From the NCBI GenBank assembly GCA_963664705.1, contig OY761556.1, positions 2,208,001 through 2,272,000 of the forward strand: a stretch of DNA of 64,000 nucleotides, given 5' to 3'. How positions within the stretch are numbered: the first letter of the stretch is position 1; every line of letters starts with the position of its first letter. The DNA is from Acidobacteriota bacterium. GTDB taxonomy: Bacteria > Acidobacteriota > UBA6911. Under the pieces are notes generated by a model. That model was not told where the DNA came from. It saw only the letters and a program-made list of their open reading frames with translations, and made no database searches. This document shows, piece by piece, positions 23,530-37,093 of the stretch. Both the position numbers and the translations under genes were made by a program.

Positions 23530-24264
23530 ATGAAGAGATTCTTTATGTTGATGGTATTGGCTATCTTAACCGTCACAGCGGCGCAGGCAGCCACGATTTA
23601 TTTTGGAGAGGACTTGAATAACAGCAATAGCGTGCCGCTAGCGTCTTACCCAAACGCTTCCGCAGCTTCTGCCAGCTTCTTATCAAATCTGGTAGGCACT
23701 GGGACGGAGACTTTTGAGGGCATATCGGGATCCGCGCCGGTTACGCTTACATTTCCAGGAGCAGGCACTGCAACATTGAGCGGATCCGGGTCAATAGTGA
23801 GTGTAACACCCGGCTCCACCAATGGATTTGGGCGTTATGCGATTTCCGGTTCCAAATATTGGGAAGTTGAAGTCAATAGCTCAACTACGCCTGCATTTAC
23901 TATTAGTTTTTCAGATCCTGTTGCCGCTTTCGGGTTTTTTGGTGTTGATATTGGTGACTTTGGCGGCCAAATCGGTTTAACCTTTGCCAACGGCACAACA
24001 CAAACCTACCTCGTTAACAATACCGTAGGCTCAGGCGGCAGCATTGATGGCTCAGTTCTTTTTTGGGGCATTATCGATACGCAAAATCCTTTCACCAGCG
24101 TATCCTTTACTGACACCAACATCAGCGATGTTTTCGCATTTGACAATATGACAATCGGTTCTGTAGAACAGGTCAATCCCACTGTCCCAGAACCAACATC
24201 GATACTTCTCCTCACCACCGGTATTATGGGAATCGGCCTGGCCGCATGGCGCAGAAAGAAATAG
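23530..24264 (+). CDS. PEP-CTERM sorting domain protein 1
   Basis: Signal peptide, Ser/Thr/Gly-rich body, VPEPTSILLLTTGIMGIGLAAWRRKK tail; GGAGGAG RBS. Confidence 0.93.
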   Translation: MKRFFMLMVLAILTVTAAQAATIYFGEDLNNSNSVPLASYPNASAASASFLSNLVGTGTETFEGISGSAPVTLTFPGAGTATLSGSGSIVSVTPGSTNGFGRYAISGSKYWEVEVNSSTTPAFTISFSDPVAAFGFFGVDIGDFGGQIGLTFANGTTQTYLVNNTVGSGGSIDGSVLFWGIIDTQNPFTSVSFTDTNISDVFAFDNMTIGSVEQVNPTVPEPTSILLLTTGIMGIGLAAWRRKK

Positions 24265-24395
24265 GACGCCATCTCCAATAGGATTCTTCAGTGATTTAAA
24301 AAGGCCGCTCATCGCAGCGGCCTTTGTTTTTTGGATTTACCTTTTCGCCGCACCTCCTGCCTGATTTCCCTGCGTTGTTTTCATAACCAATGCCG
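24181..24395 (+). repeat. Direct repeat copy A (PEP-CTERM tail, terminator, downstream spacer); copy B is 26042-26256
   Basis: Both copies are 215 bp and align colinearly, ending in TTTCATAACCAATGCCG. Confidence 0.9.
24300..24332 (+). terminator. Intrinsic terminator after PEP-CTERM gene 1
   Basis: AAAGGCCGCT-CATCGC-AGCGGCCTTT then GTTTTTT. Confidence 0.85.
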
Positions 24396-24401
24396 GCACT
24401 T

Positions 24402-24510
24402 GCCTCAAGGAATACTGGCTGTGGCAGTCGGAGGGAAAGCGCAAACCACCTGGTTCGCAACCGATTTAGACTCGGCCGCTGCGTTCTCATTGATAGCTGG
24501 AGAATAGCAG
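24402..24510 (+). pseudogene. Relic of the 3' end of the UGSC-like gene
   Basis: Aligns to 27954-28062 (shared ACCTGGTTCGCAACCGATTT and GATAGCTGGAGA) with substitutions, a 1-bp deletion and a 1-bp insertion. Confidence 0.85.
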
Positions 24511-25354: not shown

Positions 25355-26125
25355 ATGACAAAATTGGCCATAGCGTTATCAGTGGTAGTGCTTTTAACAA
25401 CAGCGGCAATTGCGGCACCAATTCCAGCTGGCTATACCTGCACCGGAAACTGCGGCACAATGGGAGCAAGCGGCGTTGTAACGCTCTCTCCCTACGGCAG
25501 CGCTGCTTACATGTATATTTCCACCGAAAGCGGCTTGGGTGGAGTAGGGGGAACCCCTACCGGCGGAGTGGTCGGAACCAATGGTACGCTGCTCGTGTCG
25601 CCTGTTTTCTCAGCCAATGTCGATGACATATTGGCCTTCTACTTTAATTACGTAACCAGCGATGGCAGTGGGTATCCCGATTTCGCATGGGCAGCCGTGG
25701 CGGATCCATCGCTGACAAGTGTAACCTATCTGGTCACAGCTAAAACGCTCCCTTCCGGAAGCATTATTCCCGGTCAGGGAATGCCAGCCATTGATGCAAC
25801 TCTTACGCCTCCCTCAGTTCCAATCATTGGTGGAGGGCCATTATGGAATGCTCTTGGTGGTTCCTCGGGCTCATGCTGGGCGGCTGGTTGTGGCTATACC
25901 GGCTGGGTTTTGTCCGAATACAAAATTCCTACGGCGGGCGACTATGTTCTCGCATTCGGCGTTATGAACGCCAACGATTTAGCCTATCAATCCGGTCTTG
26001 CAATTGATGGCGCCACCATCGCCGGCAAGCCCATCGAAGGCACAGTTCCAGAACCGACATCGCTGCTTCTTCTCGGCACCGGCCTGAGCGCAATCGGCCT
26101 GGCCGCATGGCGCAGAAAGAAATAA
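25355..26125 (+). CDS. PEP-CTERM sorting domain protein 2
   Basis: Signal peptide MTKLAIAL..., FYFNYVTSDG.GYPDFAWA core, VPEPTSLLLLGTGLSAIGLAAWRRKK tail. Confidence 0.92.
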   Translation: MTKLAIALSVVVLLTTAAIAAPIPAGYTCTGNCGTMGASGVVTLSPYGSAAYMYISTESGLGGVGGTPTGGVVGTNGTLLVSPVFSANVDDILAFYFNYVTSDGSGYPDFAWAAVADPSLTSVTYLVTAKTLPSGSIIPGQGMPAIDATLTPPSVPIIGGGPLWNALGGSSGSCWAAGCGYTGWVLSEYKIPTAGDYVLAFGVMNANDLAYQSGLAIDGATIAGKPIEGTVPEPTSLLLLGTGLSAIGLAAWRRKK

Positions 26126-26256
26126 GGCACCATCTCCAATAGGATTCTTCGCTGATTTTCAAAGGCCGCTCATCGCAGCGGCCTTTGTTTTTTTGACATA
26201 CTTTTTCGCCGCACCTCTTGCCTGGCTTCCCTGCATCATTTTCATAACCAATGCCG
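26042..26256 (+). repeat. Direct repeat copy B (see 24181-24395)
   Basis: Colinear similarity to copy A including the terminator. Confidence 0.9.
26161..26194 (+). terminator. Intrinsic terminator after PEP-CTERM gene 2
   Basis: Identical hairpin AAAGGCCGCTCATCGCAGCGGCCTTT plus T tract. Confidence 0.85.
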
Positions 26257-26310
26257 AAAGCTCTTTGATCCGGCTCCGCCAAAAGCTAAGATCGCCGTTG
26301 GAGGACGGTT

Positions 26311-28059
26311 ATGAAACGAAACGGTGCGCTCATTGCTGCCATTCTCTCGATCACAGTCCTATCGATTGCGGTCCCCAGCCCCTCGCAACAAAGCCCAAAT
26401 ACCTTGATTACAGTCCTGAACCCGGCCGTGGCCAACCGACTCGCCGAAAGGCTTCCCCTGGCCCCGCGCCTGGGCACGCTGCAAAACAAAACCATCTATA
26501 TGGTCGATATCAACTGGGGAGGCCCCGAAGCCGCCCTGAGCATCTTTGAAGAAATGCAGGGATGGTTCGCCAGGAACATGCCCACGGTGAAGACGGTTAT
26601 CCGAATGAAACGGGGCGGATATGAAACCGACGATCCGGCCTTATGGAAGGAAATCAAGGAGAATGGAGGAAGCGCGGTCATTCTCGGCGTTTCCGGCTGA
26701 GATGGTTGTACGTCGGCCTTGAGTCGACATGCCCGAACCCTCGAACAGCAATTCAGGATCCCAACGGTCGGCATCGCGGGAAACAATATTGTCGGCTATG
26801 CCACCGGCTATGATTTTCTATATTCCAACGGATGCCCCATCCGCTACATCGCCCTCCCCTTCCCGGTCGCCGGCCAGCCCAAATCCGTGCACAGGCAATA
26901 TGTCGAAGGCAAGGATCTCGTTTCCGGCAAGCAGACCATGCAAGCGGTCGTGGATGCTTTAACTCTTCCGTTAACGGACAATGAAAAAATCAAAGGCATC
27001 CCGCCCGAAGCCAAGGCCGAGCCGAGATTCCTCCGCCCCGATACAGAGGAAAAACTCCAGCGCCTTTTCAAAGACCAGGGCTGGACAGACTACTATCCTG
27101 TTACCCTTCCCACCGAAAAAAGAGTCGCGCAAATGCTCCGGGCCAGCAGTCATAAGCCCGACGAAGTCGTGAAGGTGGTCACCTGGCCCGGCGGCGCCAG
27201 GCCGTTGACCGTCGAAAAGGCCGCGATCTGCGCCGTTATGGCCGGAGCCAGGCCGGAATATTTCCCAGTGATCCTGGCGCTTGCAACCACCGTGCCCTTT
27301 GGCAATTCCACTACGTCAATGGCAAACATGATTGTGGTTAATGGGCCCATCCGCAATAAAATCGGCATGAATTCCGGCGGCCATGCATTGGGACCCTACA
27401 ACGAAGCCAACTCCATCATCGGGCGCAGTCTTACTTTGATGTCCAAAACCGCCGGCGGCCTTCGCAACCGCATCACCACCTGGAGCTCACTGGGAAATAA
27501 TCTCCAATACAACAATCTCTGCTTTGCCGAAAACGAAGAGGAGCTCCCGGCCGGATGGGACCCTCTTCATGTGGGCATGGGATTCCGCCCGGAAGAGAGC
27601 GTGGTTACGGTGGGAGTCGGCTGGAGCTCCATATCGAGCGTGGGATCGGTTCAGCATCTATATCCCCCGCAAATGCTGATCCGGGATTATATGAAATCCC
27701 TTTCAGCCCAAGGCTCCTCGGCTACGATCCTCATGGATCCTACAGTCGCGGCGCTTCTCAAGAATGCTCACGGATTTCAATCCAAGCAAAGTTTATCTCA
27801 ATGGCTGTCCCAGAATGTGGAGAAGACTGCGGAATCATACTGGGGGAATGCGGTAGTCGCCAGCGTCAGCGCTTCCCTGGCCATGCAGGGCCTGGAACCC
27901 TATGCAACGTGGAAGAACCTTCCTGCGGCGGCGCTGATCAAGCCCTTTAACCAGCCGCAAGGAATACAGGTTGTGGTAGTCGGTGGGAAAACGCAAAGCA
28001 CCTGGTTCGCAACCGATTTCAGGCTCGGCCGCGGCGTTCTCGTCGATAGCTGGAGATAG
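26311..28059 (+). CDS. UGSC-family-like putative selenoprotein, 582 aa, Sec at codon 130 (TGA 26698-26700), with signal peptide
   Basis: ORFs 26311-26700 and 26719-28059 share a frame; readthrough gives VILGVSG-U-DGCTSAL (UxxC); GGAGG RBS only at 26311; C-terminal GWTD..P..LPT, TVEK.A..AVMAG and VNGPI motifs. Confidence 0.82.
26704..26739 (+). promoter_or_regulatory. Candidate bacterial SECIS hairpin
   Basis: GTCGGC-CTTGA-GTCGAC stem-loop (26712-26728) starts 11 nt after the TGA; extendable by GTA/TGC and GGTT/AACC. Confidence 0.55.
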
Positions 28060-28148
28060 CAGGCCTTGTGCATCGCAGCCTCGGGGACTAGCTTTGCCTT
28101 CCAATCATCGGCCACTTTTGTCCCCGAAGCTATTCATTGGCAAAGCCT

Positions 28149-35779: not shown

Positions 35780-37093
35780 ATGGCCATTGCTCAAAACCAA
35801 ACCGAGAGCCTCTGTCCTTATTGCCTCCGGCAAATCGACGCGCGCAGAGTGCGCGACGAAGATTCCGTGTACCTGGAAAAATCGTGTCCCGAACACGGAG
35901 ACCTCGAAAGAGTTCTTGTCTGGAAAGATTCCCCCTGGCCTTATGAAGCATGGGACCGCGGAAGATCCAAACCGCACGCAACCGTCGCGCAATCTCAAAC
36001 GGATCCGTCCCAACTGCAGGGCTGCCCCCTCGATTGCGGAATCTGCAGCCGCCACGAACAAGCCACCTGCACGGCTATTATCGAAGTGACGCGGGAATGC
36101 AATCTGCAATGCCCGGTTTGCTTCGCCTCAGCGCCAACCGGAACCGGAGCAGGTCCGGATTTGTCCACAATCGAGGAAATGCTGATCACCGTGCGAACGA
36201 CGCGGGGAATTTGCCCTATTCAGCTCAGCGGGGGCGAACCGACGCTTCGGAATGATCTGCCTCAAATCGTGGAGCTTGCCCGAAAACTGGGATTCGATCA
36301 TATTCAAATCAACACCAACGGCATCCGCATTGCCCGGGATGAGTCATTCGCGCAATCACTCAAGGACGCAGGTGTCACCGATTTCTTTCTCCAGTTTGAC
36401 GGCCTGACCGACGATGTCTATGCACGGATTCGAGGCGCGCGACTTTTGACGGTCAAGCTTCAGGCTATCGAACGCTGCGCTCAACTAAAAGTGGGGGTCA
36501 TTCTCGTTCCAACCCTGGTCCGCGATGTCAATGACATGCAGATAGGACAAATCATCCAGTTTGCAAAAAAATGGATTCCCACGGTGAAGGGCGTCCACTT
36601 CCAGCCAATGACCTATTTGGGCCGGTACCCGGATTCACCCTGCAATAGCGAGCGTATCCTGATCCCGGAAATTCTGATAGCGATAGAGGAACAGACGGAG
36701 GGAGAGCTGCTCGCCGAAAATATGGTACCGCCTGGGTGAGAGGAGCCTCACTGCTCCTTTTCCGCCCTCTCCGTGCTGAGAGAAGATGGGATCCTGACGG
36801 CCACGACACGCTTTGACACTCCGGCGGGAGCAGTCTATTCCCACGAAAATGCTGCCGAGAAATCAAAGGACTATGTCCGCCGCCACTGGAGATATCACGA
36901 ACCCGCGCCCGACTCCCAAGACATCCTGGAAAGAGCCAAAAGTCACACTCTGTGCATTTCAGGCATGGCATTTCAGGATGCGTGGAATATTGACCTTGCG
37001 CGGCTCAGGCGCTGCTGTATTCACGTTGTTACGCCGCAAAAAAAAGTGATTCCCTTCTGCTCCTATTACCTAAATACCGGAGTCAGGCCCTGA
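35780..37093 (+). CDS. trsS: TrsS-like radical SAM selenoprotein, 437 aa, Sec at codon 320 (TGA 36737-36739)
   Basis: SLCPYC...CPEHG, GCPLDCGIC, CNLQCPVC, QLSGGEPT, HFQP; in-frame continuation PPG-U-EEPHCSF into ISGMAFQDAWNIDL.RL.RCC.H...IPFC. Confidence 0.85.
36740..36782 (+). promoter_or_regulatory. Candidate SECIS hairpin(s) after the TrsS TGA
   Basis: GAGGAGC-CTCACT-GCTCCTT (36740-36759) and CTCTC-CGTGCT-GAGAG (36767-36782). Confidence 0.5.

Follow-up and report, generated by a model that had tools for sequence, protein, structure and literature searches.

Does a single in-frame TGA separating two open reading frames (ORFs) end a gene, or does it encode selenocysteine (Sec, U) within one longer protein, and what would such a protein do? 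The question is raised by a locus in a stretch of 64,000 nucleotides (nt), hereafter the window, from the genome of an Acidobacteriota bacterium (UBA6911; contig OY761556.1, positions 2,208,001 to 2,272,000). An initial annotation, made from the letters of the window, had proposed a hidden exported selenoprotein with a UxxC redox domain and a large uncharacterised domain. Our analysis points to one gene whose UGA is very likely read as Sec, encoding a fusion of a UGSC domain with a partner domain known as 'Unknown_1' (Table 1).

ORF 1 (26311-26700, 129 amino acids (aa), ATG start) and ORF 2 (26719-28059, 446 aa, TTG start) lie in the same frame with this one TGA as their sole barrier, just as first described, and read-through gives a protein of 582 aa with the motif AVILGVSG-U-DGC-TS (S-G-U-D-G-C-T-S). 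No Shine-Dalgarno-like motif was found between the TGA and the downstream TTG, in agreement with the earlier remark that ORF 2 lacks a ribosome-binding site. The suggested UGSC kinship was confirmed by Pfam: the read-through protein scores 37.2 bits against PF24696 over residues 35-198 and passes the family cut-off of 25, ORF 1 alone scores 13.9 bits and falls below it, and the part after the TGA gives no match. In a comparison with one homologue, L039 (82% identical), the ratio of nonsynonymous to synonymous differences (pN/pS) was 0.10-0.11 on either side of the TGA; for the first 30 codons it was 0.81. Short-read contigs of runs X2 and X3, which come from one sample, possibly the source, had no differing letter over the stretch. 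Run X6 gave no reads here, and run X5 leaves the TGA uncovered. That gene callers would split the gene is visible in the database, where 119 of the 120 best matches are partial products of 360-448 aa covering 62-77% of the query.

The TGA occupies the same column in 31 of the 35 paralogues of this genome, and all 31 keep the Cys three residues on. Among 80 GTDB loci, 56 gave matches covering residue 130, with 64 matches in total; 61 of them have TGA at this residue (5 shifted by one codon by the aligner) and 3 another residue. TAA or TAG, which would count against Sec, occurred in none of the 64. Cys-aligned homologues were found in more distant branches, and none among the pattern matches for the query's own subfamily. 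Protein records give C at the Sec position for P0031 and, in the distant branches, for 9 of 35 long representatives; these Cys forms are on record letter for letter, one cluster having 32 members from four sources. For the query's own subfamily, exact pattern searches of metagenomes found at least 122 TGA and no Cys codon (TGY).

A hairpin resembling a selenocysteine insertion sequence (SECIS) follows the UGA. Its upper stem begins with G26712-C26728 after a spacer of 11 nt, the distance originally reported, and it covaries in 33 homologous stretches (31 distinct): 88.5% of cells were paired and four of nine pairs showed compensatory changes, with none of 500 shuffles as high and 25-43% of cells paired in slid windows. 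Because the fold of the query supplied the structure and the sequences share ancestry, we read this result as support and not as a probability. Compared with synonymous resampling, the hairpin of the query reached z -1.66 (p 0.066), short of significance. Across the 31 UGA paralogues the window was stabler than synonymous resamplings (mean z -1.03, 13 of 31 below -1.64), while the four paralogues without Sec gave z of 0.02 to 0.96 in the same test. One loop position is G in 27 and U in 6 of the 33 aligned sequences; the loop variant of the query is common to five homologues including L039. With a Pfam domain spanning the TGA, a conserved TGA and a covarying hairpin, the proposed Sec read-through stands.

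It had also been held that a genome without Sec machinery would speak against read-through. The genome (6.89 Mb, one contig, 98% complete, 6% contamination) contains two copies each of selA, selB, selD and tRNA-Sec (selC) above cut-offs. The two machineries are divergent (34-48% identical), and one of them is a compact selB-selA-selD-selC cluster adjoining a UGA-containing methyltransferase gene. selB was present in 28 of 29 other genomes of the genus, most congeners having one. We rejected a reassigned UGA or a suppressor tRNA, as TGA is an ordinary stop for 1268 of 4110 well-scored genes of this genome and a third tRNA call with a UCA anticodon is 72 nt long with a broken acceptor stem. Contamination as the source of the doubled sel genes or of the copy number of the family was set aside on the grounds of the single contig, the identity of only 34-48% between the sel sets and the multi-copy state of all 24 congeners; this argument does not extend to the near-identical copies p4/p5/p7.

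The locus had been described as a hidden gene. It is no lone case, being one of 35 PF24696 loci in this genome, all of them long fusions of a type already noted in 2008 and 31 of them with one TGA; by clustering, the UGSC fusions are among the three largest gene families of the genome. The paralogues are 25-60% identical to the query and differ in the xx residues of UxxC and in the loops of the partner domain, with a literal U-G-S-C in 7 of the 35 and U-D-G-C in the query. All 24 same-genus genomes have 9-45 PF24696 matches (one has 45), 16 genomes from other genera of the class have 0-1, and the phylum sample outside the genus has 0-3 (300 genomes drawn, at most 11 candidates scored per genome). 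Ten further genomes were picked because each holds a homologue. In these, the family is multi-copy in three other phyla (Desulfatiglans 16, Desulfatiglandales 13, Desulfobacterales 28, Dehalococcoidales 15 in 2.0 Mb, Gammaproteobacteria 16), and the five Acidobacteriota genomes have 27, 15, 14, 8 and 1 copies. In an unrooted FastTree phylogeny of 97 proteins, copies of this genome fall into many clades that also contain sequences of other phyla, some of the copies being recent duplicates, and the query and L039 form a pair within a clade of 36 members from four phyla; the tree being unrooted, we claim no donor or order of events.

How much of this was known? The available text of Zhang and Gladyshev (2008, PMC2398784) presents UGSC as a major family, 'likely Trx-like' (thioredoxin-like), and shows the UGSC/Unknown_1 fusion. 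The available portions of a 2007 paper and of reviews from 2022 and 2026 give no function for it, and UGSC is listed there among the commonest aquatic selenoprotein families. The present protein shares with the family (PF24696/NF041046) a domain above the Pfam cut-off with Sec at the same U-x-x-C position, and its residues 308-346 correspond by eye to the A-V-M-A-G...V-N-G-P block of Fig. S1A of the 2008 paper; a 560-aa fused Cys form (WP_358488424.1, P0139) is named 'UGSC family (seleno)protein' at NCBI. Unlike the NF041046 equivalog, the query has U-D-G-C instead of U-G-S-C and scores 22.1 bits versus a cut-off of 125, which five paralogues and P0139 (44-93 bits) also fall below. It further departs from the described family in its signal-peptide-like N-terminus and in the 35 copies per genome. 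SaoB, SaoC and SaoX are selenoproteins with signal peptides (bioRxiv 10.1101/2022.07.06.499078), so export alone is not new; they belong to unrelated families, and the part of that preprint available describes no multi-copy expansion. Family and fusion are thus already known, and the exported, single-chain, massively multi-copy form is not found in the literature searched: it contained no paper that treats UGSC proteins as multi-copy, exported or GrdB-like, with subscription journals mostly outside it and possible records in BSepDB or the 2008 datasets.

The protein is probably exported, with an uncleaved anchor as a possible variant, judging from its first residues. By inspection the N-terminus has MKR and an 11-residue hydropathy of up to 2.8, and no 19-residue window above 1.4 was found in the mature part; it is 27% identical to that of L039 versus 85-87% in the rest of the protein. 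Export-like N-termini were found in 29 of the 35 paralogues (25 scored, 1 twin-arginine-like, 3 by eye). Leaders vary among homologues (L044, L069, L049, L083 and the paralogue at genome contig 4058236 among them), being twin-arginine-like in some, lipoprotein-like in others and absent in those of Dehalococcoidia, and the one family seems to use several export routes.

AlphaFold modelled residues 31-582 as two domains (predicted local distance difference test score (pLDDT) 94.9, predicted template modelling score 0.92), in which the third strand ends at U130 and the helix after it opens with C133. The N-terminal domain (model residues 26-195) matched receiver, repressor/periplasmic-binding and other flavodoxin-like or Rossmann-like chains with Z ~10 and a root-mean-square deviation of 2.5-3.8 over 115-136 residues, many folds being tied; the absence of a family from the listed matches, the thioredoxin fold included, does not rule that family out. 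One chain from methyl-coenzyme M reductase activation (8s7v_H, Z 10.1) was tied with unrelated folds and was not used. No thioredoxin-clan Pfam family matched the protein. The redox domain initially proposed models as flavodoxin/receiver-like and not as a thioredoxin-type CxxC domain, in contrast to the 'Trx-like' of the 2008 and 2026 papers, and is related by profile to GrdB/PrdB.

This relationship was detected with hhalign. The N-domain alignment of 31 paralogues matched 18 GrdB/PrdB-like Sec regions at 92.8% (E 4e-7) over 68 columns with U on U, and at 82.6% with the motif masked, versus 0.1% for five thioredoxin-like proteins of this genome, 1.4% for receivers and 38.6% for the best of 94 unrelated families of the genome. 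One of six members scanned also gave weak matches to the GrdF and GrdB models over the Sec region (E 0.013 and 0.036). GrdB/PrdB-type reductases perform reductive C-N cleavage together with a pyruvoyl-bearing partner subunit, a role filled by the GrdE/PrdA proprotein. Their chemistry is described in the available text of PMC13188914. The query and GrdB/GrdF/PrdB (TIGR01917, NF040794, PF07355) share a homologous strand-U-x-x-C-helix-...-E..G[IL]PT segment, and the same selenolate chemistry is likely. Unlike them, our protein has no PF07355, no UxxCxxC, no grd/prd operon and a predicted export signal, and carries another partner domain in cis in place of a GrdE/PrdA proprotein. By its profile matches it is not a GrdB/PrdB member, as PF07355 is missing. 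The PF07355 model works in the phylum, with matches in 49 of 201 genomes. The GrdB/PrdB-like genes in these 49 genomes are mostly short U-P-x-C forms, which gene callers would also cut.

The partner domain, modelled alone with pLDDT 96.0, has a set of conserved residues: D260, T268, S/T333, T334, N367, R372, E407 and W416. No Pfam family matched it at E<=0.05. With this domain alone, the best Foldseek match (cyclic amide hydrolases, E 0.14, template modelling score 0.19) missed the limit of E<=0.001 and VIA reached a best Z of 5.6 over 74 residues among 48,161 chains; on these searches the fold can be called neither new nor known. A sequence search of the PDB gave no match for the protein and one chance match (E 0.63) for the family alignment A2. 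We infer that the partner domain is a substrate-binding module. A self-cleaved pyruvoyl site at S333-T334 was considered and left as rather improbable, since a quarter of the family has Thr (S in 105 and T in 34 of 147 at position 333). Elsewhere the partner domain is doubled in proteins of 709-741 aa (P0173, P0176, P0191, P0213, P0214, P0251) or occurs as three tandem genes without UGSC (L115). Eight loci in which the partner domain stands apart from UGSC were checked; in 5 of the 8 it has an N-terminal domain of thioredoxin fold (2 matches above cut-off, 3 weak), and in 3 of them a UGSC gene follows. DsbD is present in this genome, as is a thioredoxin-type gene with W-U-P-Q-C that could supply electrons (Table 1).

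From the homology to GrdB/PrdB and the fusion patterns, we hypothesized that the protein is an exported GrdB/PrdB-type selenium-dependent reductase of a small-molecule substrate, a proposal we hold tentatively, at somewhat short of even confidence. SelB would bind the hairpin and insert Sec130, and the chain would exit via the Sec translocon. The partner domain would then hold a small molecule against the selenolate, Sec130 would attack the substrate, and a selenenylsulfide would form as Cys133 resolves the intermediate. DsbD could feed an exported thioredoxin-like protein that re-reduces the Sec130/Cys133 pair. The paralogues, with their different xx residues and partner loops, might divide a range of substrates among them.

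A number of observations weigh against parts of this proposal. PF07355 has no match to the protein (E<=0.1) or in this genome, the GrdB/PrdB match spans only 68 columns, and the third Cys of the GrdB UxxCxxC is absent. The fold of the N-domain is common and tells nothing of function, and the link between DsbD and the thioredoxin is one of co-presence only. The Cys marked in 2008 for the partner domain is Ala313 here (A in 75 and C in 70 of 147 in this column). Taken alone, the hairpin falls short of significance (over 5 windows, with dinucleotide shuffles, the best z is -1.25), five paralogues of the U-G-S-C clade have no hairpin in the tested window (z -0.1 to +1.5), and the SECIS position is equalled in stability by one of 22 control offsets. 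Three Sec paralogues and five Dehalococcoidia homologues are without a signal peptide. Four of the 35 paralogues and 22 of the 35 long database representatives (a set with 9 C forms and 4 doubled partner domains) have neither U nor C or are aligned otherwise, so some members of the family work without it. Finally, the surroundings offer no operon partner or substrate clue, with a PEP-CTERM gene and its terminator upstream and a DUF6951 gene downstream on the other strand.

Among the alternatives, a general thiol-disulfide or peroxide oxidoreductase of the periplasm fares best; its targets would be proteins or oxidants and the partner a scaffold, close to the 'likely Trx-like' of 2008. It would account for UxxC in 31 of 31 Sec copies and for the export-like N-termini, and most bacterial selenoproteins are of such a kind (PMC13188914, available text). 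We nevertheless consider it unlikely: the matches of the N-domain are to receiver/flavodoxin-like folds and to GrdB/PrdB instead of thioredoxin profiles, invariant polar residues as in an enzyme occur in the partner, and 35 divergent copies (25-60% identical to the query) fit a variety of substrates better than one housekeeping task.

Alternatively, Sec might be the nucleophile of a non-redox reaction (lyase, hydrolase or group transfer), with the centre mainly in the partner and the Sec-less paralogues active. The occurrence of the partner domain alone, doubled or tripled, the 4 of 35 paralogues without U, and esterase, tannase-like and SnoaL genes near some paralogues (carboxylesterase 3/16, nominal p 0.017) would fit this. 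The neighbourhood p-values, however, are uncorrected, and a redox cycle is indicated both by the fusion of thioredoxin-fold domains to the partner and by the second Cys, which is strictly kept; this leaves such a reaction with a small share of our confidence.

Less probable again is an exported protein that binds, senses or detoxifies a metal or metalloid, in which U-x-x-C would be a ligand pair and not a catalytic couple. Of 35 TonB-dependent-receptor-like genes, 7 lie within three genes of a paralogue (nominal p 1.7e-4), periplasmic-binding-protein folds are among the tied structural matches, and metal sites have been proposed for some exported selenoproteins (bioRxiv 10.1101/2022.07.06.499078, available part). 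Against it stand the lack of a transporter gene beside the query gene, the GrdB/PrdB homology and the thioredoxin fusions. That the TGA is a real stop, leaving two genes or a pseudogene, is hardly credible: the insignificance of the hairpin alone, the separate UGSC and partner genes of other organisms and a loop lacking the G found in 27 of 33 homologous sequences are outweighed by a TGA that lies inside a Pfam domain, is kept by 31 paralogues and by 61 of 64 external matches and is never replaced by TAA or TAG, by equal purifying selection on both its sides, by full-length Cys versions and by a loop variant common to five homologues including L039.

An ab initio survey of UGA codons across the genome gave 841 candidates, mostly shadow frames, and was discarded. 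Of the 45 rows of a homologue-based survey, 25 were UGSC copies, 11 were set aside as chance and 9 are plausible selenoproteins of other kinds; TrsS and SelD are labelled from searches, and by their motifs we take others to be MvhD-like, FdhA-like, rhodanese-like and arsenite-methyltransferase-like. The 31 UGA copies and the 9 further candidates add up to ~40 selenoproteins. The published sizes available are 39 for Syntrophobacter fumaroxidans and highs of 43-46, 57 and 63 (PMC12013277, PMC13188914); even without the other candidates, the 31 UGA copies come close to the total of S. fumaroxidans. A wider idea, which we find doubtful but worth stating, is that several unrelated uncultured lineages spend most of their selenium on one overlooked superfamily, with dozens of exported single-chain GrdB/PrdB-like selenoreductases per cell, each tuned to its own extracellular substrate by the partner domain and fed by DsbD and a selenothioredoxin. 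If so, this would be a periplasmic reductive pathway not described before, concealed by gene callers that split all copies at the UGA, and these genomes would rank near the largest known selenoproteomes. The function of UGSC can be tested at the bench on a single-chain fusion that has both halves, a confident model, dozens of paralogues and natural variants with Cys or without Sec.

Table 1. Features of the locus, the rest of the window and the genome. Positions are those of the window unless marked as genome contig.
Feature	Position	Strand	Basis
Whole gene, 582 codons, UGA as selenocysteine: UGSC domain + 'Unknown_1' partner	26311..28059	+	ORFs, Pfam, pN/pS, AlphaFold
Shine-Dalgarno GGAGG, 6 nt before ATG	26300..26304	+	sequence inspection
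Signal-peptide-like N-terminus (~residues 1-25), predicted Sec-type export or membrane anchor	26311..26385	+	by eye
UGSC (PF24696) domain, residues 35-225, flavodoxin/receiver-like alpha/beta model	26413..26985	+	Pfam, AlphaFold, structure search
In-frame UGA, putative Sec130	26698..26700	+	paralogue column and external homologue matches
SECIS-like hairpin; upper stem 26712-26717 with 26723-26728, loop CUUGA	26707..26733	+	folding, covariation
Partner domain, residues 236-582, 'Unknown_1'	27016..28056	+	Fig. S1A comparison, family alignment, AlphaFold
Intrinsic-terminator-like hairpin closing upstream PEP-CTERM gene; 11 pairs, T-run	26160..26187	+	
Tandem-duplicate remnant	24180..24510	+	sequence comparison, X2/X3 contigs
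Second split selenoprotein gene, radical SAM TrsS	35780-37093, TGA 36737-36739	+	profile score
Sec machinery loci	genome contig 3072623-3078309, 2046792, 3461774, 3657373, 6559014		
Thioredoxin-type gene, signal-peptide-like start, W-U-P-Q-C, candidate periplasmic electron donor	genome contig 3151564	-	
tRNA-like 72-nt sequence, UCA anticodon, broken acceptor stem	genome contig 1625651-1625722	-	
Second probable tRNA pseudogene	genome contig 2597966-2598055	+	

The selenoprotein gene probably forms a transcription unit by itself. No sigma-70 consensus promoter was found, and the three terminator-like sites in the region compare with 3.0 expected by chance. At the level of sequence, a remnant of a tandem copy shows local gain and loss: 24180-24395 is 86% identical to 26041-26256, the upstream region with the PEP-CTERM 3' end and the terminator, and 24402-24510 is 88% identical to 27954-28062, a frameshifted copy of the last 36 codons of the gene. 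About 1.7 kb is missing from the tandem copy, and the joint is also found in the X2 and X3 contigs. The window contains a second split selenoprotein gene, for TrsS, flanked by DVU_1557-like and DVU_1553 family genes; against a cut-off of 490 bits, its product reaches 557.6 when the TGA is read through and 428.5 when it is not.

Within three genes of the paralogues, tungsten aldehyde oxidoreductase (4/22) and xanthine-dehydrogenase-like genes (4/24) were nominally enriched, without correction. A 29-gene family of ~300-aa proteins, one tested member of which had no match in Pfam/NCBIfam, has 6 of its 29 genes near UGSC fusions (e.g. L269:7957-8814). A secreted DUF4352-like family (145-190 aa) was not found beside the query gene or in the flanks of 80 other loci. 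Elsewhere in this genome it adjoins UGSC fusions, with 8 of 9 members within three genes and 5 in one recent clade, and 26 of the 28 loci fetched from the genus adjoin a fusion (L250:7434-7997, L251:4075-4509, L242:4676-5197, L268:12651-13130); the protein is a possible accessory subunit of some clades.

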